IMG/VR virus record: IMGVR_UViG_3300044820_000046
Coordinates: 1 to 40,766 of that record
Origin: a virus
Lineage: Duplodnaviria; Caudoviricetes
Length of the DNA: 40,766 bases
Reading direction: 5' to 3' (one strand)
Shown: positions 168 through 39,681 of the stretch, in pieces
How the letters are laid out: every line of letters begins with the position of its first letter
Numbering within the stretch: the stretch's first letter is position 1
Position numbers and translations under genes: made by a program
Notes under the pieces: model-generated
Database searches by the model: none
The model's input: only the letters and a program-made list of their open reading frames with translations
What the model was told of the DNA's origin: nothing

Positions 168-2147
168 ATGTGGTTCATGCGCCCGAAGATCGACACAACC
201 GACGCGATGACATGGCTCAACTGGCTGGTGCCGGGTGGGCCGTGGACGCTGGTCGCATGCAAGGGCCACGATCCCATCGAAGCGCGGCTTTGCAGCGCCG
301 CTGACGCCCCTTCCTTCCTCGCCAGCCACACACAGCGGGGCCGCATTGTCCGCGTGCTCCTGGGCCAGCCTGCGCCGGGATGGCGCACTTCCAAAGATGC
401 CCCACCCATCGTGCAGTCGCGCTATGTCGGGCTGGCCACATCGATCGCGCGCTTCAAGGAGTTGGACGAGGCCGCGCGCCCGTCGATATGGATCACGGCG
501 CAGGATCACGCAATTGCGGTGTGGCGGCTGAGTTTGCCGATCTCGGGAGATGAATCGCTCGCCGCAATCAGGAAGTTTGGCGCGGAGTTTGGCGGAAAGA
601 TATTGCCGGATATGATCCCGGTCCCGGATCTCGGGAATGGGTTCGCCCGGCACTCATTCCGGTTCGACCGGGACGCGATTGTGTGGCGTGGGCAGTTGCA
701 GTTCTCGCGCGGGCCACAGAAGGCGGCGCCGACCGCAACCCAGCAGCGCAAGCTCGAAGAGACGTTGCGACAGTTCAAGATTGGCGCGACCGTGACCGGC
801 ATGCATGTCGGGCCGGTTGTGACCTTGCTTGATGTGAAGCTCGCGCCAGGCACGAAGGCTTCTCAGGTCGTTACCATCGCAAAAGACATCGCTCGCGACA
901 TGGGTTGCACCTCGGCGCGCATCAATGAGGCCACGGGAGACGGCACAATCGGCATCGAACTTCCGAACAAGAAACGGGAGACGGTTACGTGGCGGCAGAT
1001 GATCGAAAGTGACGCCTTTCAAAACACAAAGGCCGCGCTCCCGATTGCGCTTGGCAAAGCTATCGACGGCACGCCAACCGTTGTCGATCTCGCAACGATG
1101 CCGCACGTCCTTATCGCGGGCACCACGGGCAGCGGAAAATCGGTTGGCATGAACGCAATGATCATGTCGCTGATCCTCAAACTTTCGCCTGTCGATGTGA
1201 ACTTCGTGATGATTGACCCGAAAGAGTTGGAGCTTGCGCCCTATGCGCGCATTCCGCATATGCTCGCGCCTGTTATCACCGAGCCGCAGAAAGCCGTCAT
1301 CGCCTTGACATGGGTCGTTTCCGAGATGGAGCGCCGATACAAGCGGCTGGCTGGCGCGGGCGTGCGCGACCTGGCGAGCTTCAACGCCAAGCGCCCCGGC
1401 GAACGCATGGCCCGCATTGTCGTCGTGATCGATGAGTTTGCGGATTTGATGATGACCTCGGAAAAAGAGGTTGAGCATGCGGTTCAGCGTCTTTCGCAAA
1501 AGGCGCGGGCGGCAGGCATTCATATCATCATGGCGACGCAGCGCCCGAGCGTTGACGTTGTGACCGGCGTGATTAAGGCAAATATGCCTGCTCGAATTTC
1601 CTTCTACCTGAAGTCACGGCATGACAGCGATACGATCCTCGGCTTGCCTGATGCAACGCAACTGCTTGGCCAGGGCGACATGCTGTATTTGTCGAGCAAG
1701 GGCGATTACGGCCGGTATCATGGCCCGTTCGTTTCGGATGATGACGTGGAGGCTGCGACGCGGCGGCTAAGTGGCGGCAACGCGCCTGTTTATGACGAGG
1801 GGCTTATGTCATCCCTGGATGGTGAGGACGGCCCCACCTTCGACAGCGACCGCCGCACGACGCGCATGGACGCCGCGCTTGATGTTTACGCCACACTCAC
1901 CGGCCCCATGCAAAACGCCGTGCGGTTTTTGATGACGTTTTTTCAATCTCGATTGCCGGCGACAACTGATCGTATTTTTGAGGCAGGAGCCCCGCACGGC
2001 ATCCGAGACGGCGGAACCTTTTATCGGGCGTGCAAGATGCTTCAGATCGAAAGCCGCTCCAACGGCAGCAATAAGCCCGCAACACTCATTCCTCCTGCCG
2101 AATGGCCCCTGGGCTTCGAATCCGTGCCTGTCGCGATGATGGCTTAG
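168..2147 (+). CDS. ftsK: FtsK-motor DNA translocase with degenerate RepB'-primase-like N-terminus and C-terminal winged helix
   Basis: FtsK alpha domain (GPVVTLLDVKLAPGTKASQV...IGIELPN), Walker A AGTTGSGKS, IDPKELEL, Walker B VVVIDEFADL, KARAAGIH, ATQRPSVDV. No N-terminal TM segments and no gamma-domain IGYNRAA motif. Confidence 0.9.
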   Translation: MWFMRPKIDTTDAMTWLNWLVPGGPWTLVACKGHDPIEARLCSAADAPSFLASHTQRGRIVRVLLGQPAPGWRTSKDAPPIVQSRYVGLATSIARFKELDEAARPSIWITAQDHAIAVWRLSLPISGDESLAAIRKFGAEFGGKILPDMIPVPDLGNGFARHSFRFDRDAIVWRGQLQFSRGPQKAAPTATQQRKLEETLRQFKIGATVTGMHVGPVVTLLDVKLAPGTKASQVVTIAKDIARDMGCTSARINEATGDGTIGIELPNKKRETVTWRQMIESDAFQNTKAALPIALGKAIDGTPTVVDLATMPHVLIAGTTGSGKSVGMNAMIMSLILKLSPVDVNFVMIDPKELELAPYARIPHMLAPVITEPQKAVIALTWVVSEMERRYKRLAGAGVRDLASFNAKRPGERMARIVVVIDEFADLMMTSEKEVEHAVQRLSQKARAAGIHIIMATQRPSVDVVTGVIKANMPARISFYLKSRHDSDTILGLPDATQLLGQGDMLYLSSKGDYGRYHGPFVSDDDVEAATRRLSGGNAPVYDEGLMSSLDGEDGPTFDSDRRTTRMDAALDVYATLTGPMQNAVRFLMTFFQSRLPATTDRIFEAGAPHGIRDGGTFYRACKMLQIESRSNGSNKPATLIPPAEWPLGFESVPVAMMA

Positions 2148-7630: not shown

Positions 7631-7969
7631 TCAGGTCTTTCGATGTTTTTGCGTTTCATTCTCGTCCTCGCGCGCCTTTGCATCCAATTTATGCGTCTGG
7701 ATCAAAAAGCACCGATCCTCCATCGTCCGCACACGAGCGCTCAACCCGTCATAGCTGGTCTTTAGCTCGGCCTGATTGATAAAAACATCGGTCAGCTTAT
7801 GAAGATCGGCTTCGATCTTGGCCACTCGGTCGAGCATCATTTGCAAATTTGCCTTCAGAGTTACCGATTGGTAGATGATCGCGATCACGAAACCTAAAAC
7901 CGTGATCACTTCCCCTATGGTTATGCCTAAGCTATTCATGTCTGCATTTGGCGTTATCGGTATGCTCAC
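7631..7969 (-). CDS. Single-TM coiled-coil protein, lysis-associated (holin/antiholin-like)
   Basis: GAGAGGGA RBS before GTG 7969; TM ITVLGFVIAIIY followed by a coiled coil; downstream of the endolysin. Confidence 0.65.
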   Translation of the reverse strand: MSIPITPNADMNSLGITIGEVITVLGFVIAIIYQSVTLKANLQMMLDRVAKIEADLHKLTDVFINQAELKTSYDGLSARVRTMEDRCFLIQTHKLDAKAREDENETQKHRKT

Positions 7970-7996: not shown

Positions 7997-8022
7997 AAAA
8001 AAAGGGCCGCAAAGCGCGGCCC
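7997..8022 (-). terminator. Rho-independent terminator
   Basis: GGGCCGC/GCGGCCC stem with A7 on the plus strand (U7 on the minus transcript). Confidence 0.85.
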
Positions 8023-8053: not shown

Positions 8054-8410
8054 TTATGCCGCAGGAGCGGGCGCAGGGGCCGGCGAGACGGGCGGCGTCG
8101 GAATAGCAGCCTGTGCGGCAGCAGCGGCGGCGTTGAGGTTCGCGGCGATCGCCTGGAGTTTTGCGACCGAAGCAGGAACATCAGCGCCGTCCGCAACTTC
8201 CTGAGCAAGCAGCGTGATTGCCGCGGCTTCATTCTGCGAGGCGGTGACGAGGGATTGTGCGCCAGCTTCGACGGCTGCAACGACATCGCTAAGAGCTGTC
8301 ATGAGTGTTTTCCCTTGCTGAGAGATGGTTTGGGTTAGCAGGCTGATTGCAGATGTGTTTCGATCAATCGTCGCCTGAGTCGTTTGATCAAAGCGGATCG
8401 TCCAGGCCAT
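8054..8410 (-). CDS. Ala-rich coiled-coil protein in the lysis cassette
   Basis: TAATG-coupled to the endolysin stop; helical Ala-rich with a Pro-rich tail. Confidence 0.7.
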   Translation of the reverse strand: MAWTIRFDQTTQATIDRNTSAISLLTQTISQQGKTLMTALSDVVAAVEAGAQSLVTASQNEAAAITLLAQEVADGADVPASVAKLQAIAANLNAAAAAAQAAIPTPPVSPAPAPAPAA

Positions 8411-8670
8411 TACGCAGCCTGTGGCGTAGGGCTTATCAAGGTGGGATTCGAGATGTTTTCAGAAGCGGCCTGTGCTGACAAATAAAGTCCAGCTCCAGCC
8501 GAGACGATGCCGCCAACCGCATCAAGGATTGGCGCGAGCACGGAATTTGCGGTCGGCGCATCAAGGCCGAATTTGATCAGCAAGCCGGTTCCGACCATCT
8601 TGAGTGCGGATCGCACAAGGGACTGGATCTGCGCATTACCGAGAAACGTGAGTAAGAGCCTGGCGAGCAT
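8410..8670 (-). CDS. Putative nested in-frame holin (86 aa) translated from an internal start
   Basis: GGAGG-TTTCC-ATG inside the endolysin frame; product has two to three hydrophobic helices. Confidence 0.55.
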   Translation of the reverse strand: MLARLLLTFLGNAQIQSLVRSALKMVGTGLLIKFGLDAPTANSVLAPILDAVGGIVSAGAGLYLSAQAASENISNPTLISPTPQAA

Positions 8671-9498
8671 GGAAACCTCCGGTTTTACAGGCGACAAGGG
8701 GGATAGCGCTTGCTTGAGCGCCGCGAGTGTGTTCGGCCCAGCGATGCCGTCCACGGTCAAATTGTGTTCCTGCTGGAACGTCATAACTGCGGTTTGAGTT
8801 TGCGGGCCGTCGAAGCCGTCAACCGTGAGATTGAAGCCGAGCTTGTTCAGGGACTCCTGCACGGCCTTGATTTCCGCAGACGGCTCAGGAGCAAGGTTTT
8901 CGCCCTGGCTCCATTTCGCATAGGACGCAGCCAGCTTTTCGTCGTAGCGGTTTCGGCGATACCCGGCCCCGTTGTAACCCTTGGCAAAGGCGGCCCACCG
9001 ATGCGCGGCCAGGTCGTCATCGATCTTCGAGTATTTGATCTCGCCGACCATCGCTTCGATCTGGGCGTCGATATTGCCCCGCATCGCATTGACCATGCTC
9101 GATGCGCTGTCGTAGCCCAAATGCTCGGCCTGGAAGCCCATTGTTTGCCCGACCCCCCATGATGCCGCGCGGTAGGCGCAATCGGCGTCTACGGCCACCG
9201 CCCGCCCGAGAAGGGCGAGCCGTCCTTTGCTCGTCCCCTGGTCCTTGTATTGTGTGGCGGGCTGCCAACTGGCGTTTGCCAGCCCATCGGTTATCGCTTC
9301 GTTGAGTTTTCCCGGCGCGCGGGCGTGGAGCTGCTGGTAGAAAATATGCCGCTCGAACAAGAATTGCGGCGTCGTGCCATCAGCAATCTCGAACGGCGCC
9401 CCGGCGCTTTCGATATCGACTACAGCAAGGAGCGCCGCAGCTTCGATGCCGTGAGCGTCCGCAGCCTTGCGAACAGCCGTTTCAACGTCCGCTCTCAT
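8410..9498 (-). CDS. Endolysin: N-acetylmuramidase (DUF3380-type) + PG-binding domain + C-terminal holin-like segment
   Basis: AVVDIESAG, FLFERHIF, ASWGVGQTMGF, WAAFAKGYNG..Y..NRYDEKL; PG_binding_1 VDGFDGPQT...FQQEHNLTVDGIAGPNT; hydrophobic tail. Confidence 0.92.
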   Translation of the reverse strand: MRADVETAVRKAADAHGIEAAALLAVVDIESAGAPFEIADGTTPQFLFERHIFYQQLHARAPGKLNEAITDGLANASWQPATQYKDQGTSKGRLALLGRAVAVDADCAYRAASWGVGQTMGFQAEHLGYDSASSMVNAMRGNIDAQIEAMVGEIKYSKIDDDLAAHRWAAFAKGYNGAGYRRNRYDEKLAASYAKWSQGENLAPEPSAEIKAVQESLNKLGFNLTVDGFDGPQTQTAVMTFQQEHNLTVDGIAGPNTLAALKQALSPLSPVKPEVSMLARLLLTFLGNAQIQSLVRSALKMVGTGLLIKFGLDAPTANSVLAPILDAVGGIVSAGAGLYLSAQAASENISNPTLISPTPQAA

Positions 9499-11827: not shown

Positions 11828-14224
11828 TCAACCCCCGAAGCACACCCAATTAACCTGCGCCGTATCGGAACCCGTTGAGGACGTTGGCGTGACCGTTGTG
11901 GTTGAAGAAGTGATCTTGATCTGACCGGCCAGGGTGCCCGTCCCGGTCCATGTTGCTTGGCAGTTCGGCGCCGAAGTATAGGTCGATGCTAGGCCCTGCG
12001 CGGAGCACGCGCCCGACGACATCGTGCATTGCCCTTTATCGGTTGGGTTTAGACGCGATGCTTTCAGAGCGCCGTCAACCTGCGTGTTGCCTGTCGTGTT
12101 CCGCGTTGGCAACGCGCCGCTCGGCGTAAGTGAGCCGTCATCCGTCCAAGACAAAGGACTCGTTGCGCGAACGCCCACGGCGCCAAAAAGGCTATCCCAT
12201 GTCACCGTCGCGAGGAGGAGTTCCGAGCCTGCTGATCGCCCATAAATTTTATACGCATAAGCTCCAAGCTCGGCGTTCCATGAGATTTTATTTGTTGCTA
12301 CGCCTGCCGACAGAGAGGATGCATTCGCGATTGTCGCCTCGGTCGAGGCAAGCGTCTCGCCATCGTAAGTCAGTGCAGAGACACGGTAGCCGTATGTCGT
12401 CGCGCCCGATCCGAGAGACGCCGTGGCCGAAACGTTGACGGGCGCCGACAGTTGGCGCACATAAAGCGGGCCGCCGAAATGATTGAACTTTCCGGCGAAG
12501 TCGTTCCGCCATGTCTGCCATGCGCCATCGCTGGCTCCGTTCGCGGTGTTCCAGTTTCCGAGAATGGTTTGATGCGGGGCGACAACGGTGCCGGGGATGT
12601 TTTTGGGGCTGTATTCGATGTTCCGTTGGTCATTAGTCCAGACCATCGAACCAAAATTAAAATTGCTCGGCCAAAGATAAATGCAGCCGACACAACGAAA
12701 ACGGCCCTGGTTGACAGAGGGATAATTTGTAAGATTGAGCGTTATGGTTGCGGGGTCGGTGCCATTGTTGTATTGAACGCCGCTGTTCTCTAGGTCGATA
12801 TCCCATTGCTGCTGGCCGTTTACGTCAACAATCACGCCATCCGCTCGAACGTCCCCGTTCTGAATTTGGAATATACTATTCCGCATCATGAACGCAGTGC
12901 CGGACCCCGTGAGTTGCAACAACCCAGAGCCTTTTTCCGAGAAAACATCGTAGGCATCCACCTTCGCCGAGGTGCCAAGCTTGAAGTTATAGTCGAAGGT
13001 GTTGGAGCAAAACGCCGTGTGAATTTCCATCGACGCCGTTGTGTTGATGCAACTCTTCGCCGTTTGGACATTAAACCTTTCGATATAAAGGTTTGAAGCA
13101 TTTGGATTGGCGTCGTGGATGCCGTCGCCGTTAATGCCTACAATCGTTACGTTTTTGAAGTAATTGCTGTCGCCGTTGATCGTGCCAGAAAATGAGATTC
13201 CGTGATTGAATTGCCCTGAACCGGAGAGAGTGCCGGATTGCACCATAGCTCCGGTTGTCGTGTTGGCGCATGTAACGCTGCCCGCCGATGAGGCTGTCAC
13301 GGTGCATTGGCCGTTATACCCAAGGGGTATCGCGCCGAGGACCGTCATCAGGCTCCCGACAGGCAAAACGGTCGAACCGGAAAATGTAAAAGTCGCGCTC
13401 GATCCTGTGCCGGAAGTGCCGGTCAAAGCCGCCTGGAACTGGCTCCCCGCGTCGTACCCATAGATGCTGCCGATCCAGACATCCTCGACCACGTTGTAAA
13501 TGACCGTGCCAGGGGTGCCGGATGTCGAAAAGTCGATCGCGCTCAAAGGCGGATTTACCGTTGACCCTACGAGGCGGATTTTTTTGATCGTGGCCCCCCA
13601 ATAGTCCGTGATTTTGATCATATCCACGCCGGCCGATCCGACCCAGGTCAGGACGGATTGCGGAGTGCCTGTCGCGAGAGTTGACCCCCAGCCCGTGCCC
13701 TCCAGCATCACGCCACCGGAAACCGTCAATGTCGAATTGATCGCGAATTGAGACAGAAGCACCTTGCCGGATGATATGCCTGAATTTTGCGACGTAAAAT
13801 AATTGACCGCCGCCTGGATGGCTGATGTGTTGGCCGTGGCGTTGGTGGAGTCCGTTGCCGTGTGATTGGTAGGCCCGCACATTTCCGGCCTGATTATATC
13901 GCCCGTCAGCGCATAGTAAGCAGTAGATCCGCCCGCGAGCGTGAGGGAAAAGCCGCAATAAGACGCAGGCGAGCCGACATTGACATAAAGCGCCGCCCCG
14001 AGGTCGCCGTCTGTAGCATAGCCTGTTGTTTGTATGGAACTTGGTGCCGACGAAGGATGATATCCAGAAACAAGGCCCGTGACTGTCGTTGGCCCTGAGC
14101 TTGGCGGAACCGGCCCCACCGTGCCATTGTCGAGAAGGACGCACGACCCTGTTCCCGTGCAAGCAGCCGAAACAGGCGCGCAAAAGGCTACAAGCGCGAC
14201 AAAAAACGCTAAAAGTCTAGTCAT
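11828..14224 (-). CDS. Beta-helix spike-like protein with an N-terminal signal peptide
   Basis: MTRLLAFFVALVAFCAPVSAA (Sec-type), TGYATDGDLGAALY, NTSAIQAAV, G/S/T-rich beta repeats, Cys pairs at both ends. Confidence 0.8.
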   Translation of the reverse strand: MTRLLAFFVALVAFCAPVSAACTGTGSCVLLDNGTVGPVPPSSGPTTVTGLVSGYHPSSAPSSIQTTGYATDGDLGAALYVNVGSPASYCGFSLTLAGGSTAYYALTGDIIRPEMCGPTNHTATDSTNATANTSAIQAAVNYFTSQNSGISSGKVLLSQFAINSTLTVSGGVMLEGTGWGSTLATGTPQSVLTWVGSAGVDMIKITDYWGATIKKIRLVGSTVNPPLSAIDFSTSGTPGTVIYNVVEDVWIGSIYGYDAGSQFQAALTGTSGTGSSATFTFSGSTVLPVGSLMTVLGAIPLGYNGQCTVTASSAGSVTCANTTTGAMVQSGTLSGSGQFNHGISFSGTINGDSNYFKNVTIVGINGDGIHDANPNASNLYIERFNVQTAKSCINTTASMEIHTAFCSNTFDYNFKLGTSAKVDAYDVFSEKGSGLLQLTGSGTAFMMRNSIFQIQNGDVRADGVIVDVNGQQQWDIDLENSGVQYNNGTDPATITLNLTNYPSVNQGRFRCVGCIYLWPSNFNFGSMVWTNDQRNIEYSPKNIPGTVVAPHQTILGNWNTANGASDGAWQTWRNDFAGKFNHFGGPLYVRQLSAPVNVSATASLGSGATTYGYRVSALTYDGETLASTEATIANASSLSAGVATNKISWNAELGAYAYKIYGRSAGSELLLATVTWDSLFGAVGVRATSPLSWTDDGSLTPSGALPTRNTTGNTQVDGALKASRLNPTDKGQCTMSSGACSAQGLASTYTSAPNCQATWTGTGTLAGQIKITSSTTTVTPTSSTGSDTAQVNWVCFGG

Positions 14225-18709: not shown

Positions 18710-21700
18710 CTATCGAGCCAGAGCGCGCGCCAGATCACCCAGCCGCAGCTTTTCGCGCCGCCCGGTGAGTGCGTGTGCGAGTTTGTCGTTTGGCCGCTCG
18801 GGTGGTGCAGGAGGGGCGGGGAGGGGCTTTGCGGGGTGCGGCGCGGCGCGGCGTGCGTAGGTTATGCGGGGGTCGTTGGGGTCGAAGGTGCCACGGTTTC
18901 CGATGGCGCTTTTGATTTGCGTCGGGTCAATGACGGCGATTTCATTGATTTTTCCGTTTTCGTGAAAAATAAGGGCGTCCGGGGTGCGATTTGGATCGGT
19001 CCCTTTCCACCTCGGCCATTCCTCCGTCGCGCTCTTGCTTTGGTTGTAGTAAGCGGGATTTTCGGCCTTTATGTAGGCGGGATACATCAATCCTGTATTC
19101 TCGGCCGTGTAATGACCTGCATACTCGGGGTGAGGGCTGAAAAACGATCCGTCCCTAAATTGCATAAGGCCGAACGGTTCGTTGTTCTCTTTCGCTTTCC
19201 TGAATCGTTCCAAAGTGTTCTGTGGGTCGCCGCGTTTCCCGCCGCCTTCTGGCAAAAAAGCTTCGATGTCCGGCGACGTGGTGCCGTGGTAAACAACAAG
19301 CGGCTTACCGTTCTTGTCTACGATCTTGCTTTTCCCGAACCACTTGCGAAAAGCTGGCGTATCCGTCTGCAAAGTCGGCTTCGTCGCTTCTTTCGCCGCC
19401 TTCGAATAATCCCCCCGCAAAATCCCTTCGAGCGCATCCTTAACCGGCGCAATCTGCTCATCCGTCAGCGCGCCGTGCTTGTAAAGCTCCATCATGTGAG
19501 ACGCGGCTTCTTCATCCATCGCGCTTTTCATGGCGCGCGGGGAGCGATCGCTGTATGCGTCTTCATAAGCTTCGCGCCAAGTTCCAGGCAGCGCTTCTTT
19601 CCAACTTGGATCGCCGATCTCTTTCAGGTAATCTTTCGCTTGACGATCCATAATTCCGAGGGAATCAGAATGTCTGACAAGAGCTTGCCTGATGGGCGCG
19701 GGGATATTCCGCCAGTTGGCGTGAACAACCTCGTGAGCGATAGCGCCGCCAGTAAGCCGCGCCGCCACATCACTTTGAACGTTGCCGGATTTAACGCCCA
19801 CATCACCAGACGGCGCGAAAGAGCCGAGGCGGAAGCTGACAAGGCTTCGGGTGTCGGGGTCGTAAAAAGCCCGAGCATGGGAGATGGCGTTGCTATCGAC
19901 GGGCAGCATAAAGGTTGAGCCGTCAGGGTGCTTGAATGTCGCCTTGTACTCGCCGGGACCAGAAGACTCAAGCGATGCCAGCGCGCCGAGTTTCGTCCCT
20001 TCTGGGATCGCCGCGACGTAGGGCTTCATCGCTTCGTGCGCGGCTGTGATGATCTCATGCGGCGCTTCGACGGCGCGTCCTGCCGCGAGTTGAGACATGG
20101 CGTGGGTGCGGGCTTCGGAGTCGCCTTTCAGCGCATAAGCCTGTCCGGGGCCACCTTCCGAAAGCGCCTCGTGCATTTCTGGCGTGATGCGCAGGATCAG
20201 ATGACCGTTTTCCGAGTCAGAATCTGGCAGCCATTCCTTCTCAAGCTTGCCGCCCCACTGCTTGGCGTAATCACCGAGCCAGCGCGGAAGCTTCTGATCG
20301 TAGAATACCTTCAGAGAGCCAGATTTAGCGCTGTTAGCGGCCTCAACCTGTTCGGCGTCTGGAAGCACAAGAGCATCATAACCGCCCTCCACGGCCTTCC
20401 TGAGAGCCACCTTGGCCGCCATCTGCCAAGTACGATCTTTTTGATAGGCGTAGGACGGCACATTCTCGCCGGGCCGCGCCGCGTCGGCACTGAAGCGGCT
20501 TTGAATGTGGTTTAGAAGTAGCCCTGTGCCGCCGTCTGGCATCGGGATATCGGAATGCGTGACGTGCGCGACCACAGGGCCATGCTGCGCTTTGCTGCCC
20601 TCTTCCTGATTCCAATGCGGCTCGGAGTATTTGCCTTCGAGGTCGTTTGCGCGGATCAGCGTCTCTTGATAATTCGTGCCGCCAGCAAGCCGCGTGCCGG
20701 GGTATTGCGTCTCGTCGTCCTTGATTTGCGCAAGCCGCTCGTCGGCAGCCTTTTTCGCCTGCTGTGCTTCAATCACATCGTCGCGTTTGACCGAGCGCGC
20801 TTCGTCGGGAAGCTGATAAAAGCTTTCCGTGCGGTATTTCGCGGCGAGGCGTTCGAATTTGTCGGTTGCGGCGTCAGCCTCGGCGCGGGCGTCTTCCGCT
20901 GCGTCGCGGCTTAGCGTGCGCTCTTCGAGATCCGGCGCATTGCCGCGCAGATGGTTGAGGAGTTCGGTTTTCGTGACCGATTTCTTGCCTGCCAGCCAAT
21001 CTTCGGTGCCCGTATGCGCGAGATAATCTTTCGCGCCGGGGAGCTTGTTCAGCGCCGCGAGCCATTGTTGCGGGGCGGCTTTGTCTTGCGGGAAAGTTTC
21101 GACGGCGCGTTCAAAGGGGGAATGGAAGCCGCGAAGGGCAAACATTTTGCCTTCGTTCGGCTGCGCATCGGGGTGCTCGGCGTGGATCTCACGAATGGCC
21201 GTCTGCGCGCCCGACATATTCGGAAGCGTCCCCCACTCGGTATCTGATGGCTTCAGGTTCTCGATCTGGTCGATGTCGAAATGGCGCGGAGCAAAAGACT
21301 TGACCGGACCTTTCGACGTACTGCCGCCAGTCTGCACGCCATGAACGCGAGCGCGGCTTCCTTCAACGTCATTCACAAGTCCGATGCGGTGCGGGGAAAA
21401 CTCCCGAGGTGCGCCTTGGTACTCAAAAGCAAGAGGCTGACTCGCCTCCATTGCCTTGTAAACTTGGTCGTAAAGATCGGGGCGAGTGCCTTTTTCTTTG
21501 TGCGGCACTTGCTCAAGTGTCGGGTAGCGGCCTCTTAAGCCGTTTTCGTGTGCAGCCTCGGCAGGACCGGGCCGCGCGGCGGTAGCTCCAAAAAGTTCTT
21601 TCTGATTTTGTGCGTCACCGAACAGCCCTTCATGCTGCAACTCAGCGTTCCCGCCTCGCAACGGCTTGTTGGCCTGCGCTTGCAAGCGCTCTCGATCTGT

Positions 21701-23911
21701 TACGGGGGCGACGCCAGGAATAAGCTGTTGAGGCTTCCCTTCGGCCCCAGCCTCAAATTGAGGTTCCGGTTTCGCGGACTGCGACGCGGCTCGGAATGCT
21801 TCCGGGCTTGGTTCGCCGCCGCCGTTCTCTTTAACGAGGCGATTATACCGCGAAAGCCATTGGTGCGCCGTCAGGACTTCGTATTTATCCTGATTTATGG
21901 CTTCAGCGGTCTTTCTTTCAAAGGTTTCAAGAGCGGGCTTGCCAGTTTCTTTTGAAACGACAACCCAACTGCCAGACATGCCATCGTTTAGTTCTGGGAT
22001 TGGCCTTGCGTTGGGGTTGGGGTTGACGGTTGCGGCTGCGTTGCCTGCTGGAGCGCGGCCTGCGCCTTCTCCGCTTGCGACTGGCGCAACTTCGCCATGT
22101 TCTCCGCCGCGCTCGCGATTGCTGAGATCTGCGCTTTCGCGTGCGGCACGGTCGAGAGTTCCGCCCGGCGCCGCAACATCGCTGCGGCTTGGTGATAGTG
22201 TTCCGCTGGGTGTTTCATTGGCCTCCCATCCTGGAAAATAATCATGATGCGCAATGGTTTGGATATGCTGTTCAGGCGACAACGTATCACTAACCTCGCG
22301 CACGATCAAATCGTGGATCACATCGTCGGGATTCTCTCCCCGCGAAATGCGCGTCGCGGCCTCGTCCTTAAACGCTTCGGGGAATGCATCGAAGTCTTGA
22401 GCGAATGTCGTGCCGTGCTCGGCGTCGATCTCGCCAAGCTTCCGGCCCGCTTCGGCGTGAAGCCGCTGCTGCTCGGCAAATTGCTGATCGTTGACTTGCT
22501 TGGTGACGTGGGTTTGGTCGTTACCGTAGGGCGTGACGCGTTGCTTTGCGATCAGGTCGCGAGCGAGCGTATCGTAAAAATCGGGGAGAGCATGCGGCGA
22601 TTCGGCATTTGGGTCGGTGTAACCCATGTAGCCGTGTTCTATCATCGAGCCGAGGGCTGTATCGTGAGGCTTGCCCTTATTGCTGATCAGGCCAGGGAAC
22701 TTCTGCGGCGTGATGCCGAGGTTCGTCAATTCCGTGCTCGGCTTGATGCCGCCGTTTGCCTTCAGGAAGCCGAGAAGCGACAACGGCTCGCCGTTGGCTT
22801 TATGCGTTTTGAACCCGGCGCTTGGAGGGGCCGCAGGAGCGCGCGAGACTGGCGCAGCAGGCTCGACGTTGGGCGCTACGGCAGGAGCGGGCGGCGCTTC
22901 CGGGGCTGTGCGAGCTTCTGTGGGCGTCTCAGGCGGAAGGCCAATATCGGCGGGAAGGCGTTCGCGCGGCGGCTCGGCGAGGCGTGCGGACCATAGGCTT
23001 TCATCCGGCGCGTTCGCGGGCTGTTCGACATTCGTTGCCGCTTCGGGCTTCGGTTGCAAATCAGCGGAACGCAATTCTGTCGCAGGCTGCTCGGTCGGCG
23101 CTGGCTTCGGCGCTTCCGGCGAAGGCACAACGCCGTCAGGATAGAGATCGCGACGCGGGCCGGTGCCGAAGACATCGTGTTGGACCGGCTTCGGGTTGTT
23201 CCAGTCGTAGAGGTCAACGAAATAGGGCGGCGCGGAAGGTGCGGTCGGTGCGGCAGGCTTCGATTCCGGTGCCGGGGCCGGACCCTTTGGCCCTTCAAGC
23301 CCAAGCGGCGCGTGATCCACCCAATCGTTGACGCCGCGCATGCGGTCGATGAATGCGGCGTTTTCGGCTGGCGTTGAAAGCTTCGGCCCTTTGATGCCGG
23401 TTTCGCGCCCGTAAGCGATGCCATAAGGGTGCGCGAGTCCGGCTTCCATCGTCGCGCCAAGCGTCTGTGCTGTTTCCGGGTATCGCGCAACGGCTTGTGC
23501 CTGCGCTTCCTGTTCGGCGCGCTGGTATCTTTCAGGCTCGACGCCAGCGGGAAGGTCGCGCGTTCCAAAGCGAGAATAATACATCGTCCGCGCGGCGTCT
23601 GCGGCGGTCCCGAGGTTCGCTTGCCCGGCAGTCAGGCCGGGGATCGGGTCCAGCATGGAAGCAATGCCGCCCGCGTCGGAGGCGGACGGGTTTGCGTAAA
23701 ACTCGCTCGCTTCCTGGCCTAAGCGCTTGCCGCGCTCCTCGATGCCGTGGCGCAGGCTTTCAGGCACATAGCTCCACGCTTTCGACAAGATGCCGGGTTG
23801 CTCGACGGGCGCATGATCAATCCAGTCGCCGGGGTCGGTATTTGGAGCGGCCGCAACAGGGGCGTGCTCGATCCAGTCGCCAGGATCGACGGAAGGCGTC
23901 CAGTCGGCCAT
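18710..23911 (-). CDS. Large polyvalent ejection protein (WYL-like, LPD-like, HExxH and ADP-ribosyltransferase domains)
   Basis: 1733 aa; C-terminal TPAFRKWFGKSKIVDKNGKPLVVYHGT...FFS...YIKAENP...EIAV..PTQIKSAIGNRGTFD (ART-PolyVal pattern); AHEVVH; WYL-like segment. Confidence 0.85.
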   Translation of the reverse strand: MADWTPSVDPGDWIEHAPVAAAPNTDPGDWIDHAPVEQPGILSKAWSYVPESLRHGIEERGKRLGQEASEFYANPSASDAGGIASMLDPIPGLTAGQANLGTAADAARTMYYSRFGTRDLPAGVEPERYQRAEQEAQAQAVARYPETAQTLGATMEAGLAHPYGIAYGRETGIKGPKLSTPAENAAFIDRMRGVNDWVDHAPLGLEGPKGPAPAPESKPAAPTAPSAPPYFVDLYDWNNPKPVQHDVFGTGPRRDLYPDGVVPSPEAPKPAPTEQPATELRSADLQPKPEAATNVEQPANAPDESLWSARLAEPPRERLPADIGLPPETPTEARTAPEAPPAPAVAPNVEPAAPVSRAPAAPPSAGFKTHKANGEPLSLLGFLKANGGIKPSTELTNLGITPQKFPGLISNKGKPHDTALGSMIEHGYMGYTDPNAESPHALPDFYDTLARDLIAKQRVTPYGNDQTHVTKQVNDQQFAEQQRLHAEAGRKLGEIDAEHGTTFAQDFDAFPEAFKDEAATRISRGENPDDVIHDLIVREVSDTLSPEQHIQTIAHHDYFPGWEANETPSGTLSPSRSDVAAPGGTLDRAARESADLSNRERGGEHGEVAPVASGEGAGRAPAGNAAATVNPNPNARPIPELNDGMSGSWVVVSKETGKPALETFERKTAEAINQDKYEVLTAHQWLSRYNRLVKENGGGEPSPEAFRAASQSAKPEPQFEAGAEGKPQQLIPGVAPVTDRERLQAQANKPLRGGNAELQHEGLFGDAQNQKELFGATAARPGPAEAAHENGLRGRYPTLEQVPHKEKGTRPDLYDQVYKAMEASQPLAFEYQGAPREFSPHRIGLVNDVEGSRARVHGVQTGGSTSKGPVKSFAPRHFDIDQIENLKPSDTEWGTLPNMSGAQTAIREIHAEHPDAQPNEGKMFALRGFHSPFERAVETFPQDKAAPQQWLAALNKLPGAKDYLAHTGTEDWLAGKKSVTKTELLNHLRGNAPDLEERTLSRDAAEDARAEADAATDKFERLAAKYRTESFYQLPDEARSVKRDDVIEAQQAKKAADERLAQIKDDETQYPGTRLAGGTNYQETLIRANDLEGKYSEPHWNQEEGSKAQHGPVVAHVTHSDIPMPDGGTGLLLNHIQSRFSADAARPGENVPSYAYQKDRTWQMAAKVALRKAVEGGYDALVLPDAEQVEAANSAKSGSLKVFYDQKLPRWLGDYAKQWGGKLEKEWLPDSDSENGHLILRITPEMHEALSEGGPGQAYALKGDSEARTHAMSQLAAGRAVEAPHEIITAAHEAMKPYVAAIPEGTKLGALASLESSGPGEYKATFKHPDGSTFMLPVDSNAISHARAFYDPDTRSLVSFRLGSFAPSGDVGVKSGNVQSDVAARLTGGAIAHEVVHANWRNIPAPIRQALVRHSDSLGIMDRQAKDYLKEIGDPSWKEALPGTWREAYEDAYSDRSPRAMKSAMDEEAASHMMELYKHGALTDEQIAPVKDALEGILRGDYSKAAKEATKPTLQTDTPAFRKWFGKSKIVDKNGKPLVVYHGTTSPDIEAFLPEGGGKRGDPQNTLERFRKAKENNEPFGLMQFRDGSFFSPHPEYAGHYTAENTGLMYPAYIKAENPAYYNQSKSATEEWPRWKGTDPNRTPDALIFHENGKINEIAVIDPTQIKSAIGNRGTFDPNDPRITYARRAAPHPAKPLPAPPAPPERPNDKLAHALTGRREKLRLGDLARALAR

Positions 23912-31981: not shown

Positions 31982-34072
31982 TCAGTGTTGTTCTTTGGGA
32001 ATCAAGAGGATGTCCATGCGATACCGCTCGGCTACGCGGTAGCCGAACGTCTCGCAGATCCAGTCCGGCGTTTCGCCGTGGGCGACGCCGTATCGTGTCG
32101 AAAGCCCGTTGTCCTCGATGGTGATCACGGGCCGGAATTTGCGGATCGTGTCCGCAGCGCCTTCGAGGGCGCGCTTTTCGTAGCCTTCAACGTCGAGGCA
32201 GATCGCGTCGCAGGCGGCGAGGTTGAGGCTGTCGATGGTGACGATTGCGACCGCTTCGCCTTGCGCGAGATAGCGACCGGACGAGTTTTGAAATCCGTCA
32301 ACCGCAATGCCTGCGTATCCCGGCTTATCGCCGAGCGCATTGTTGTAGGCGACGACAGGTGAGGCATCGATGCAGTTCCGCATCAGAGCCTCATAGTTGA
32401 GCGGGTCCGCCTCGAACGTCACGACGCGGGCAAAGTGCTTGGCCAACTCTTTCGGCCATATGCCAACGTGTCCGCCCGCCTGGACAACGGTCCCGCGTCG
32501 GCCGCAGTATTTGAGCACTTCCTGCACGTCGAGCGCGGTATTGTCGTTCAGGATGTAGACCGAAGTCGCGTCGCCGTATGGCGTCAAAAACCCTTCCACC
32601 TCGATGAACTTGCCGTCGATGATTTCAACTGGCGTCGCCTTCTTCGCGACGATCCAGGCTAGAAGCCCTTCGCCGGCCGCCGAGATCGAGCAGCCGTTTT
32701 CGATGAGCGTATCAACGAGCGTGTTGAACTCGTTCGCCTGTGTCGCCATCCACGGCGCGCATTGAAAAACGCGGTGCTCGCAGATAACCGTGAGCGCCTT
32801 TTCGCCCTCGTTCAAAGGCTGCGGATAGGAATGGTGCTGCCCGTCGATATAGCAGCCATCCATGCCGTAGAGATGCAGCTTGCGATACCCGGACAGGTAG
32901 GCCAGCAGCATCGCCTTCAAGCCGACCGTGGAGCCGCCACCGAGCAAATGCGTGGGCTGTTCGCCCGGCATCGCTTCAAGAAGCTCCTGCACGCCTTCCG
33001 TGGCGTTGTGGTAGAGCGTCACCTTCGCGTCATGCGGCACCGTCTCAAACACGCCAGGATGGCACTGTGAGGCGATGAGAAAATCAAGCTCCCAATGAGG
33101 CAGAGACACGAATGCGGCGTTCTCGGGCCGCGCATCGAGGATCACAACGGCATCAGGGCGAATGGAGTGGTCGCAGAGATATTTCGCGGCGCCGTTCAGC
33201 GCCCAAATCTTGCCGCCAGCCGCTTTCGCCGCGCGGATTTGGCTGATATTCGCGCCGAGCGAGGGACCGCCGCCGCAGATAAGCACGAAGCCGTCATGCT
33301 CGGGTTGAATGTCGAACCACGGAACGTCGCGCGCACAGGCTGAATGGAAGTTCGCCAGGATGCGCTCGTTTTCCGTGTTGCAGATCACGTCAAGTTCGGC
33401 GTGCGAGATGCCGCCCAGCTTCCAGACTTCCGGCACCCAGCCACCGTCGATGAGGTGCGGCTTGTTCTCGGGGCCGTGGAAACAGACGACGCTTGCGCCT
33501 TCCGGCATGCGACGCCCGAGCTTGCGAAATGAAACGAACCGCTTCGGAAACATATCCTGCCAGAAATCGACAGGCTTGGTGCCCATGCAGCGCTGAATCC
33601 ACTCTTGGTCGCCTTCCTCGCAATGAGGGAAGCAGGCACGTTCGAACGAGGTCCAGATGTCGGTCAGGCCAGGAGCGCCGACACGCCAGCCCATGAAAGC
33701 GCTTCCGAAGCCGTGCGCGCGGTCCATGACGTTGTGCAGGATTGCGAAATCACCGCGGTAGGCCAGAATTTCATCGAGCCGCCCGGTGATCAAGTTGTCG
33801 AGATCCGAGAAGAAGACGTGATCGCCATCCTCGAAGACGCCCGACTTGAAAAGGGCCAGCTTGTTATACCAGCCCGATAGACCGGGATGGGGCAGGGGGC
33901 GAACGCGGACGCCTGGAATGTACCCGGCGTCAGGTTGATCGGTGAAGACGACGAACTTTCCTTGATAGCCTTCGGCTAGGTTGCGCGAGATCGAGTCGAA
34001 CAGGTTGTTGACGTACTCAGCGCCGCGAGATTGGTAATTGCCTGCGTTTACGCAGCAGATGGTGATAGACAA
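31982..34072 (-). CDS. Triple fusion: GT-A glycosyltransferase + MptE/DUF115-like + FkbM methyltransferase
   Basis: GWYNKL, FSDLD, GDQEWI, VCFHG..KPH; ICGGGPSL, GGSTVG, LYGMD; VVQAGGHVGIW, LDVEGYE..ALEGA..I.KFRPVI.IE. Confidence 0.88.
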   Translation of the reverse strand: MSITICCVNAGNYQSRGAEYVNNLFDSISRNLAEGYQGKFVVFTDQPDAGYIPGVRVRPLPHPGLSGWYNKLALFKSGVFEDGDHVFFSDLDNLITGRLDEILAYRGDFAILHNVMDRAHGFGSAFMGWRVGAPGLTDIWTSFERACFPHCEEGDQEWIQRCMGTKPVDFWQDMFPKRFVSFRKLGRRMPEGASVVCFHGPENKPHLIDGGWVPEVWKLGGISHAELDVICNTENERILANFHSACARDVPWFDIQPEHDGFVLICGGGPSLGANISQIRAAKAAGGKIWALNGAAKYLCDHSIRPDAVVILDARPENAAFVSLPHWELDFLIASQCHPGVFETVPHDAKVTLYHNATEGVQELLEAMPGEQPTHLLGGGSTVGLKAMLLAYLSGYRKLHLYGMDGCYIDGQHHSYPQPLNEGEKALTVICEHRVFQCAPWMATQANEFNTLVDTLIENGCSISAAGEGLLAWIVAKKATPVEIIDGKFIEVEGFLTPYGDATSVYILNDNTALDVQEVLKYCGRRGTVVQAGGHVGIWPKELAKHFARVVTFEADPLNYEALMRNCIDASPVVAYNNALGDKPGYAGIAVDGFQNSSGRYLAQGEAVAIVTIDSLNLAACDAICLDVEGYEKRALEGAADTIRKFRPVITIEDNGLSTRYGVAHGETPDWICETFGYRVAERYRMDILLIPKEQH

Positions 34073-34153: not shown

Positions 34154-34774
34154 TTATTTACGTGCGTTCGGCCCGTTCCAGGCGTTCGCACGCTTGATGG
34201 TCAAGGCGTCCTTCAGGGGCCAGCCCATACGAATGCGCTCATAAACGCGACGCCATTTCATGCCGTGCATTTCGGAAAGCTCGGCTAGAGACTTCATCTC
34301 GCCGTTCCATTCGAAATGAGGGGAAACCTCCCGATTTCTGATCTGCTCTTTTCGTGTTGCCCAGTAGCAATTCCCGGGTTCGTAATTGCCGTTGTTGTCT
34401 CTGCGTTCAATGCTTTTCCCGCCAGGTTTGACACCCATATCCTCAAAGAAATTAATAAAAGAGTGCCAACGCTCGCAGACCACAATCCCTCGACCACCAT
34501 AGCGATGATACCAACGGTTATTTTTGTTGTAGCATCGCCCTTTCATTTGCGCCCAAGACATATAAGTTGGCGTCTTTTCCATTCCGTGCTCGCGGCACCA
34601 ATCCTTACCCTTACACCCGCAGGATGTGCTCGTGCCATGAACAAGTGTTGCAGAAAGAACAGGTTTTATTTCACCACAAGAACATTTACAGACATATCTT
34701 ATAGGCGTCCCGAGGCATCTTTCTAAAACAAACCAATCTCCAAACTGTTTTCCAGAAATATCTTCATGTTTCAT
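34154..34774 (-). CDS. Free-standing HNH-type homing endonuclease
   Basis: CKCSCG, STSCGC, HGM..TPTY.SW..MK.RC, YGGRGI.VCERW..F.NF..DMG, SIERRDNNGNYEPGNCYWAT; AT-rich; GGAGG RBS before ATG 34774. Confidence 0.88.
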   Translation of the reverse strand: MKHEDISGKQFGDWFVLERCLGTPIRYVCKCSCGEIKPVLSATLVHGTSTSCGCKGKDWCREHGMEKTPTYMSWAQMKGRCYNKNNRWYHRYGGRGIVVCERWHSFINFFEDMGVKPGGKSIERRDNNGNYEPGNCYWATRKEQIRNREVSPHFEWNGEMKSLAELSEMHGMKWRRVYERIRMGWPLKDALTIKRANAWNGPNARK

Positions 34775-34831
34775 GTATTGGCCTCCATGTTCTGAGGCCA
34801 ATACATTACACCAATGCTAGAACAAGGTCAA
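34773..34831 (-). promoter_or_regulatory. Promoter plus RBS-sequestering hairpin of the HNH gene
   Basis: TTGACC-17-TAATGT; perfect 13-bp inverted repeat 34773-34785/34794-34806 covering most of GGAGG and the start codon. Confidence 0.75.
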
Positions 34832-35338
34832 CTATGTTATCTGACCTTGGAGGTGGGGCCTCGAAATTGTGACCACGATGGTTGAGGTCGTAGATGTCAC
34901 AGAAGACAAGTTCGCAGAGCGAGCGCCGAGAATTTGAGTTCCAGACGAAGCGACGGCTTTCACTCGCCCGGCGTTTGCGCCAAGATAAAGTGAAACCTGC
35001 TTTAGAATCTGGACCGCATCCTTTTTGGCGACGGCATTGCCCTCGATGATGTACCAGCCGTAGCTCGACGCCACGTTGGCCGACATCGCCCAGGCGACAG
35101 GAGCCCCCGTGTTGCCCGCGGTCCTCAGAGGAATCGCGGTCTGGTAGGTTGTCGCGTTGTACGTGACCATCGTCCCAACGGTCGTGTTGGCCACGCCGAG
35201 CAGATAGATGAACTCGCCGTGTCCATAGGTTGGGTCCCAGCCCGAAACAATCGTGCCGAGCGGGTGAAGTGCAGTCGTTGAGGTGTCGGCGATTGCCTGA
35301 GCACCAATGCCCCCAGAGGAGGATACAGTATAAGCCAT
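34832..35338 (-). CDS. Capsid decoration/cement protein
   Basis: PLGTIV..WDPTYGHGEFIYL.GVA.T.VG, PVAWAMSANVA..YGWY; follows the MCP. Confidence 0.78.
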   Translation of the reverse strand: MAYTVSSSGGIGAQAIADTSTTALHPLGTIVSGWDPTYGHGEFIYLLGVANTTVGTMVTYNATTYQTAIPLRTAGNTGAPVAWAMSANVASSYGWYIIEGNAVAKKDAVQILKQVSLYLGANAGRVKAVASSGTQILGARSANLSSVTSTTSTIVVTISRPHLQGQIT

Positions 35339-35344
35339 GTTAAG

Positions 35345-35989
35345 TTATTCCTGATGAGGTTTTGGACCGCGATTGATCTTTGGCGTGCGAAGCGCCCGAT
35401 CCAAATCCCAGCCCGTTTTCAGCCTGTTTCTTAAGATTGCAGGCTTGATGCCGAAGCGCTCAGCCAACGTAAGCAGCGGAACTTTTTCGCCATCAAAAAC
35501 GACATATGTCGTGCAGTCTCTATTTCTTTGCTGCTGCGTTGGCGTCGCCCATCGGCAATTATTTGGGCTATACCCCTCATCATTGCGCTCGCGATCCAAG
35601 CTTGTCCCAGCAGGACGCTCGCCCATGTCTTGAAGGAAGCTTTCAAAGCTGTGCAGCCACCGATCGCAAACTGTTATCCCTTTCGCTCCATATCTTTGAA
35701 ACGATGGATCAGATGGATTTGTGCAGCGCTGACGCATTGAGTCCCAACTTTTAAAAGTTGGAGTTCCTGTCATGCCATGCGTGCTGATGGCTTCTCTATG
35801 GAGACAGCCACAGGACCGACTTTTCCCAGAAGTAAGGAGGCCGGTCCTTATGGGCTTTATGGTTCCGCATTTGCATTGACAAATCCAGAGCCAATATCCC
35901 TGTTCATCCCTATGAGATCTAGAGAGAACCTTTAGATAACCAAAGGTTTCCCCAGAAACGTCCAGTCTTCGCGGCTTTCTCTTTTGCAT
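35345..35989 (-). CDS. Second free-standing HNH-type homing endonuclease
   Basis: WICQCKCG, SRSCGC, HGMTGTPTF.SW..MR.RC, YGAKGITVCDRW, SLDRERNDEGYSPNNCRWAT; paralogue of 34154-34774. Confidence 0.88.
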   Translation of the reverse strand: MQKRKPRRLDVSGETFGYLKVLSRSHRDEQGYWLWICQCKCGTIKPIRTGLLTSGKSRSCGCLHREAISTHGMTGTPTFKSWDSMRQRCTNPSDPSFQRYGAKGITVCDRWLHSFESFLQDMGERPAGTSLDRERNDEGYSPNNCRWATPTQQQRNRDCTTYVVFDGEKVPLLTLAERFGIKPAILRNRLKTGWDLDRALRTPKINRGPKPHQE

Positions 35990-38415: not shown

Positions 38416-38458
38416 TCTGTTTGCTCTGTTTTATTCCTGAATTATCAAGTGATTACGC

Positions 38459-38493
38459 TTCAAGCATCAGAACGAATCACGTACATTCATCGC
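38459..38493 (+). promoter_or_regulatory. Putative leaderless promoter of tnpB with a GANTC site
   Basis: TTCAAG-17-TACATT, 6 nt before ATG 38494, no SD; CGAATCAC in the spacer. Confidence 0.55.
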
Positions 38494-39681
38494 ATGATTT
38501 TGAATCGCGGATACTCTTTCCGGCTTTACGCCACCGAAGACCAGGAGCGGACTTTCGCTCAATGGACCGGAGTGTGCCGCGCGGTTTACAACGCTGCGCT
38601 GTTTCAGCGTGAGCACTTTAGCCGCAAGGGACGGTTCGTTGGTTTCCACGAGAACGCCGCAGACCTAAAGCTTTTGCGCCGAGAGTTCGATTGGATAGGG
38701 TCCGTCTCACAAACAGCAGAGATAAATGCCATTAGAGACTTGGACATTGCTTTTAAAAACTTTTTTTCTGGCCGATGCGGCTTCCCGAAGCCGCGCCGGA
38801 AGTTTCGGGACGAGAGCTTTCGCATCGAGGCGCGCGAATGCCCAGTGCGCCGGTTGAATGCGAGTTGGGGCGAAGTCCGGTTGCCGAAGATCGGCTGGAT
38901 ACGTTTCAGACAGTCCCGCGAGTTCCCCAATGGGGCAGACTTTCGCACCGTGACGGTAATCAAAATTGGCATTCACTGGCACGCATCTTTTGCTGTTCGT
39001 TTTAAGGTAAATTCCGAACCAAATTTGAAGCCTGCTATTGGGGTAGATCGCGGTGTCGCCAACTCCATCGCCCTTTCGACGGGTGAACTTGCCTCTGTGC
39101 CGATTGAGCGTCTTCGCATTTTCGACAGGCGGAACCGAAAAGCGCAACAGGAAGCCGCTCGCCGCAAGCGTGGATCGAAGCGCTATGCCAAGTCCCGCCG
39201 CCGCGCCGCCGCGTGCAAGTCCAAGGCCGCACGTATCCGCAAGCATTGGAACCACCAAGCCACCACGGCCCTTGTGAGCCGGTTTGGCGTGGTCTGCATA
39301 GAAGACCTGAAGACCTCGAACATGACCGCCAGCGCGCGCGGAACGGTCGAGGAACCGGGCCGGAACGTCCGGCAAAAAGCTGGCCTCAATCGTTCGATCT
39401 TGGAGCATGGCTGGTATCAGTTTGAAACTTTTTTGACCTACAAACTCGCCGCGTCAGGCGGCACTCTCGTCAAGGTTAACCCGCGAAACACATCACGGAC
39501 CTGTCCTATCTGCGGCTCAATCGATGCGCGCAACCGCGAAAACCAAGCTCACTTTCGCTGCATCGAATGCGGTCACGAAGCCCACGCTGACGTGAACGCG
39601 GCCATCAACATACTTCGGGCCGGAACGCGGCCCTCGGAACGGGCGAAAGTCCGATGCCGAGAATCTCGGATCGCGGCTTAG
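38494..39681 (+). CDS. tnpB: TnpB RNA-guided endonuclease (IS200/IS605 family)
   Basis: YSFRLY.T..Q, CRAVYN.AL, FPKPR, LPKIGWI; RuvC IGVDRG / CIEDL / HADVNAA; zinc finger CPICG...CIECG. Confidence 0.95.
   Translation: MILNRGYSFRLYATEDQERTFAQWTGVCRAVYNAALFQREHFSRKGRFVGFHENAADLKLLRREFDWIGSVSQTAEINAIRDLDIAFKNFFSGRCGFPKPRRKFRDESFRIEARECPVRRLNASWGEVRLPKIGWIRFRQSREFPNGADFRTVTVIKIGIHWHASFAVRFKVNSEPNLKPAIGVDRGVANSIALSTGELASVPIERLRIFDRRNRKAQQEAARRKRGSKRYAKSRRRAAACKSKAARIRKHWNHQATTALVSRFGVVCIEDLKTSNMTASARGTVEEPGRNVRQKAGLNRSILEHGWYQFETFLTYKLAASGGTLVKVNPRNTSRTCPICGSIDARNRENQAHFRCIECGHEAHADVNAAINILRAGTRPSERAKVRCRESRIAA

Follow-up and report, generated by a model that had tools for sequence, protein, structure and literature searches.

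How holins bring folded endolysins across the membrane is under debate, with holes and direct carriage both in discussion (PMC9527704). The window considered here, which is the whole stretch of DNA analysed (40,766 nucleotides) and corresponds to an entire 40.8-kb viral record that is ~80% complete, raises this question in a particular form. A minus-strand gene at 8410..9498 encodes a 362-aa protein in which a muramidase and a peptidoglycan-binding domain are followed by a putative holin tail, and this tail is preceded by a Shine-Dalgarno (SD) sequence and a start codon of its own. Is the fusion real, does the internal start give a second product, and what might that product do?

Domains and reading frame of the fused lysin gene

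The open reading frame contains 362 codons and no internal stop. Residues 19-196 (8911..9444, minus strand) match the N-acetylmuramidase domain PF11860 (Pfam E 4e-45) with 154.5 bits, which is over the cut-off of 22.3, and the protein is similar to the solved endolysins 7RUM (E 1e-34) and 5NM7 (E 4e-31). Glu30, located in an ES motif, aligns with the 7RUM endolysin and is presumably the catalytic residue. The protein fits the N-acetylmuramidase endolysin class (PF11860, AP3gp15/7RUM type) and is predicted to hydrolyse peptidoglycan. A peptidoglycan-binding domain (PF01471, PG_binding_1, E 9e-19) follows at residues 208-261 (8716..8877, minus strand), and a Pro/Ser-rich linker leads from there to the internal start. 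The catalytic domain begins at residue 19 according to Pfam and no SAR helix was found at the N-terminus, where the 19-residue Kyte-Doolittle mean is at most 1.33 and falls inside the helix carrying the ES motif. The predicted fold of the full-length protein (pLDDT 33) is unusable.

The first-pass annotation, made from the letters alone, had described a GGAGG placed five nucleotides before an ATG, following the peptidoglycan-binding domain and preceding an 86-aa domain, and this is what is read directly on the minus strand. The GGAGG lies at 8676..8680 (minus strand), in frame over Pro273-Glu274-Val275 and with an A-rich stretch directly upstream, and the ATG at 8670 is codon 277. From this codon to the TAA common to both frames there are exactly 86 aa, so that the nested in-frame ORF, a PF23987-like putative holin, occupies 8410..8670 (minus strand).

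The in-frame fusion itself is borne out as well, since the frame is open and 9 other fused proteins read across the joint. These come from JGI, ENA, NCBI and Logan sources. A missed stop near 8680 had been named as something to check, and none is present: a Logan contig of depth 16, from a run that may itself be the source of the window, spans the fused stretch with 0 differences, and the 9 other fused proteins are continuous. An assembly error or a one-off stop-loss could have merged two ordinary genes, as the window is a metagenomic contig and one relative (P0004, a frame-shifted P0002) does run into the next gene. We consider such a merge highly improbable given the identical Logan contig and the further fused proteins; it is in fact already refuted by the existence of fused homologues, which together with the Logan contig also rule out sequencing error as the cause of the fusion.

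The start codon at the joint

Among the 336 internal in-frame ATG/GTG codons of 25 chosen genes of the window, the ATG at 8670 pairs best with the anti-SD, and of their 193 internal ATGs it alone has a GGAGG 4-10 nt upstream. Its pairing also beats all 25 gene starts scored, with -10.2 kcal/mol compared to -5.9 kcal/mol for the lysin gene's own start, and the 70-nt mRNA window at this codon is the 8th weakest in folding among 338 along the gene. The internal SD/ATG is more than chance.

Ten fused proteins, including that of the window, were found via homologue searches and counted. Three of them are PF11860 fusions (window, P0002, P0003), five are GH108 fusions (P0005, P0010, P0016-P0018), and in the remaining two (P0006, P0007) the catalytic part has no Pfam match, although it has relatives in 12 viral loci (L005-L016). 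Three sequences were left out of the count: the frame-shifted P0004, P0009, which starts within the domain, and P0011, where the extension is not an enzyme and the joint has no Met. Three catalytic types are joined to the tail, which appears to be a module taking at least three unrelated enzymes. The fused family is small, and a word-index search for stand-alone forms, which is a weak search, gave none among 4 candidates.

The residue at the joint is Met in 9 of the 10 fused proteins and Val in the other one, and its distance to the Arg conserved in the domain is 18-22 residues; P0008 and P0012, two short homologues, start 21 residues ahead of this Arg. All ten carry a Glu 3-4 residues upstream of the joint Met/Val, whereas such a Glu is missing at all 22 other Mets that nine of the enzyme parts contain in their 2033 positions. 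Tail identity between lineages is 31-62%, and the linkers contain indels. The DNA at the joint could be seen for three of the ten, and reads GGAGG-5-ATG in the window, GGAG-9-ATG in L002 and GGAG-9-GTG in L003, with the upstream Glu codon contributing to the GGAG in each case. Because the L003 DNA reads GGAG-9-GTG, the joint Val corresponds to a GTG start codon. Between L002 and L003 the joint changes from ATG to GTG and stays a start codon, while the other two internal Mets are replaced by Leu and Asp. Internal ATG/GTG sites with a GGAG 4-10 nt ahead of them are rare, at 3 of 294 in the L002 genome and 5 of 375 in that of L003. Ranked by pairing energy, the joint start is 2nd of 5 (L002) and 3rd of 11 (L003) within its gene, and 18 of 294 and 28 of 375, respectively, genome-wide. 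Synonymous-site conservation before the start (5/8 versus 76/188, P 0.19) is not significant.

In the tree with all 16 rows, the fused and short forms interleave. When P0008 and P0012, which are on short contigs, are removed, a single fusion origin is not rejected (p-AU 0.24). As a single fusion event with later swapping of enzymes is not rejected, the ten fused proteins are not independent and represent about five lineages. Judging from these alignments, the internal start is kept across divergent fused relatives.

The tail, its relatives and the lysis region

The window tail matches PF23987 (Phage_holin_10) over model positions 1-42 with E 0.0033 and 17.9-18.5 bits, below the curated cut-off of 27, and the other fused tails score 17.5-21.1 bits where they match. 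The short homologue P0012, with 29.3 bits, passes the cut-off. A profile built from three tails and run over 1.84 billion proteins gave 10 matches (4 enzyme fusions and 6 short or non-enzyme proteins) and retrieved P0012 at E 1.5e-4. By this comparison the window tail is homologous to PF23987 through P0012 as intermediate member. The nearest named Atlas clusters of P0012 are PF23987 proteins of 69-79 aa; the Atlas matches of the window tail itself (0.82) are leads only. The holin function of PF23987 (Pam3 gp28 family) is a putative database label, and no experimental test of it was found in the open-access literature.

The domain also occurs without an enzyme. It stands alone in L004, where it is seen in DNA with no enzyme or lysin upstream, and in P0013 and P0014. 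The contigs of P0008 and P0012 are short (1404 and 512 nt), which makes the stand-alone state of these two proteins unsure. In P0011, the same putative holin domain lies behind a different, hydrophobic non-enzyme segment of 132 aa, and there is no Met at the joint.

The tail had been called hydrophobic, which holds only moderately, as its best 19-residue Kyte-Doolittle means are 1.23 and 1.72, giving one weak and one moderate segment. Its first third (tail residues 1-24) looks amphipathic, and the model has three helices (pLDDT 67). Compared to holins as a class, which are small and have at least one transmembrane helix, the tail is small (86 aa) and marginal in hydrophobicity. Fold searches with the tail gave no informative match, and the homodimer prediction score (0.01) speaks neither for nor against pairing.

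Searches of 50,697 phage records with the tail, P0012 and P0014 gave 0 matches. No match to the tail family was found in GTDB genome contigs, no match covering the P0005 tail in plasmids, and no viral locus in the search with P0013; the phage-record and genome searches returned no cultured member of the fused-lysin family. Several apparent carriers of the same tail were rejected: the lysin tails of BDU-MI-1 and 7-7-1, with hhalign probabilities of 0.2 and 0.1, are unrelated to it, L001 has a different tail, and L021 and L030 were chance pattern matches.

The best phage matches of both the lysin and the major capsid protein are from Bradyrhizobium phages (44% identity for both), from which an alphaproteobacterial host is inferred. 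The fused lysin gene is located downstream of tail-fibre-like genes, in a late-region lysis position, and the tail is joined to an endolysin, next to which holin genes are usually located. Its stop codon overlaps (TAATG) an Ala-rich gene with a predicted coiled coil (8054..8410, minus strand), and a similar Ala-rich gene follows the fused lysin in L002 (3231-3521), in L003 and in the P0002/P0004 contig. In the window gene, a further Met at 8302 is preceded by AAGGGA at a distance of 8 nt, and in L003 the frame opens at a stop-overlapping CTG, with an ATG preceded by AGGTG further in. It is possible that the Ala-rich gene, too, comes in a long and a short form and belongs to the cassette. In P0004, the 501-aa frame-shifted variant of P0002, the tail runs into the Ala-rich gene, probably because of an assembly error.

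A terminator-like hairpin with a T run (8004..8022, minus strand) closes the two-gene unit formed by the lysin and the Ala-rich gene; the hairpin scan alone is not significant because 3 were found in the region against 3.1 expected in shuffles. Beyond it, a gene at 7631..7969 (minus strand) encodes a protein of 112 aa that combines a coiled coil with a single, strongly hydrophobic helix and is an alternative holin candidate (phrog_10340 holin/anti-holin, E 0.074, a weak match). In G002, a 63-aa one-helix membrane gene directly precedes the fused lysin, while in G001 (61% complete) no small membrane gene was found beside it. A simple scan of the small ORFs with an SD in the window, whose record is ~80% complete, gave no credible candidate for a spanin-like lipoprotein, although a Gram-negative host is likely. 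A 798-aa fibre-like ORF lacking family matches (11828-14224, minus strand) starts with a signal-peptide-like, Cys-containing segment. Further notable genes of the window, at 38449-39681 (plus), 34154-35989 (minus), 31982-34072 (minus), 18710-23911 (minus) and 168-2147 (plus), include an IS605/TnpB-like gene in the head region together with a pair of related HNH genes, an FtsK gene, an ART-PolyVal domain within a 1733-aa protein and a glycosyltransferase-MptE-like-FkbM methyltransferase fusion.

Probable products of the frame and their precedents

Since the tail is related to putative holins, occurs enzyme-free and has a conserved internal start, we consider it probable that the frame makes two products, the 362-aa endolysin and the 86-aa tail. 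If so, the short one would somewhat more probably than not be a true hole-former, because the domain exists enzyme-free, is in lysis position, and in G001 has no neighbouring membrane gene. Taken as a whole, the reading in which a fused endolysin-holin gene has two products and the free tail is the holin is the best explanation, with roughly even chances. What speaks against it is the score of the tail below the PF23987 cut-off, its marginal hydrophobicity, and the one-helix genes nearby in the window and G002. The earlier proposal that one gene could give both a membrane-anchored endolysin and a free holin is partly supported, more for the two products than for the hole-forming role.

The tail of the 362-aa endolysin, a predicted anchor, would hold it at the inner membrane, and the 86-aa tail in its free form, probably the commoner product, would act as the holin. 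Both would gather in this membrane; the enzyme part, which has no recognisable N-terminal signal, would stay cytoplasmic until the free tails trigger. It may be speculated that fused copies co-assemble with free tails and ride in their membrane patches, and that upon triggering the enzyme crosses, is flipped or is released at the lesion, which would follow in spirit the model outlined in PMC9527704, with the cargo at the opposite end. The purpose could be a fixed holin-to-enzyme ratio, with the enzyme delivered at the hole. We can propose only tentatively a distinct lysis scheme in phages of Gram-negative hosts where one frame gives a holin and a holin-tagged endolysin, in a ratio set by the SD, the enzyme being carried within the holin assembly.

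Two other readings with a working gene have to be weighed against the fused endolysin-holin. Instead of forming holes, the short product could serve the anchored endolysin as a partner or a brake, either scaffolding its oligomers, as happens in two-polypeptide endolysins, or acting as an antiholin-like timer, with a separate gene such as 7631-7969 as the holin. Every point favouring the internal start counts equally here, the known internal-start products described in PMC9430671 are assembly subunits, and the putative standing of PF23987, the marginal hydrophobicity with an amphipathic first third and the separate one-helix membrane genes of the window and G002 all fit. The enzyme-free occurrence of the domain sets it apart from the cell-wall-binding products of known cases, however, G001 has no adjacent membrane gene, and 7631-7969 sits beyond the terminator-like hairpin, which leaves the partner or brake rather unlikely. 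Alternatively, only the full-length protein would matter, as a self-exporting, C-terminally anchored endolysin like LysAP, for which PMC8879335 indicates that such an anchor is enough for lysis, and the SD/ATG would be the relic of a once-separate holin gene. Related lysins of alphaproteobacterial phages commonly end in a hydrophobic tail (BDU-MI-1, 7-7-1, L001), a fused former gene keeps its start for some time, Met-to-Val is also an ordinary substitution, and the synonymous test was not significant. Against a relic, the start residue and the Glu are kept in all ten proteins despite the divergence of the tails and the swapping of enzymes, the internal SD ranks first among 336 in the window genes, and the BDU-MI-1 and 7-7-1 tails are dissimilar to the PF23987-like domain; we find this reading improbable.

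Should the fused endolysin-holin be confirmed, it would be a natural gene in which part of the holin copies carry the cargo in covalent linkage and the rest are free, with ratio and linkage tunable by single synonymous changes. The PF23987 family would gain its first functional test, internal-start endolysins would extend to likely Gram-negative hosts and to membrane products, and one reason why phage genomes can seem to be without a holin would be that annotation calls just the long product.

Two starts in one lysis frame, with different roles, are known from the lambda S105/S107 dual start and from the phage 21 pinholin/SAR endolysin. The window gene would resemble them in this, and possibly in a first helix leaving the membrane, but a 276-aa enzyme forms the extension here, compared to two residues in S107, and the window lysin lacks the N-terminal SAR segment of the phage 21 endolysin. 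Short homologues of 62-90 aa are shared with PF23987, whereas the tail here is fused behind an enzyme and scores under the curated cut-off. Attai and co-workers are said to have described in 2017 the hydrolase of Agrobacterium phages Atu_ph02/03 as a muramidase with a C-terminal helix. It is cited as C-terminally anchored in PMC8541568, PMC5872128 and PMC8614784. LysAP of Acidovorax phage AP1 is likewise a C-terminally anchored endolysin whose tail is needed for lysis (PMC8879335), with the catalytic domain first, the hydrophobic tail last and a Gram-negative host; that account gives it a single-helix tail and a separate holin gene, and describes neither an internal start nor a stand-alone tail family. 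A natural holin-endolysin fusion of the TpeE/BhlA family from Clostridium sporogenes (Brueser and Mehner-Breitfeld 2022, PMC9527704) also joins both functions in one chain, with cargo export proposed via flipping of the holin segment. There, the holin is N-terminal and of another family, the host is Gram-positive, and the function of the protein, found by BLAST, is putative; because the holin is N-terminal, no free holin is proposed in that source.

In gene organisation there is a likeness to two-polypeptide endolysins (Lys170, LysIME-EF1, CTP1L, CD27L, CS74L, Ply2638A and Ms6 LysA; Pinto et al. 2022, PMC9430671), where one gene has two in-frame starts with their own ribosome-binding sites, a common stop and a start at the domain boundary. 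As in these, a strong in-frame ribosome-binding site and start between domains are found in the window lysin. Internal-start endolysins are reported there as common in phages of Gram-positive hosts, giving cell-wall-binding subunits; phages infecting Gram-negative hosts were excluded from the survey, whose main text never uses 'transmembrane'. The short product of the known cases is a cell-wall-binding domain, with or without the catalytic domain. In the window lysin the binding domain (208-261) precedes the start (277), so the short product is not this domain but a putative membrane protein; the phage is likely alphaproteobacterial and not one of a Gram-positive host. No endolysin with a C-terminal holin keeping its own start was found in the main texts of the open-access literature (the endolysin tables of PMC9430671 may include membrane-tailed cases). 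Each element has been described before, the internal start of endolysins as well as the C-terminal anchor and the fusion of holin and endolysin, so that the difference from the canonical, SAR and lambda schemes, as first claimed, concerns the combination and not its parts. On the sequence evidence, the fused lysin-tail gene is real and conserved, and brings known elements into a new combination with a putative function.
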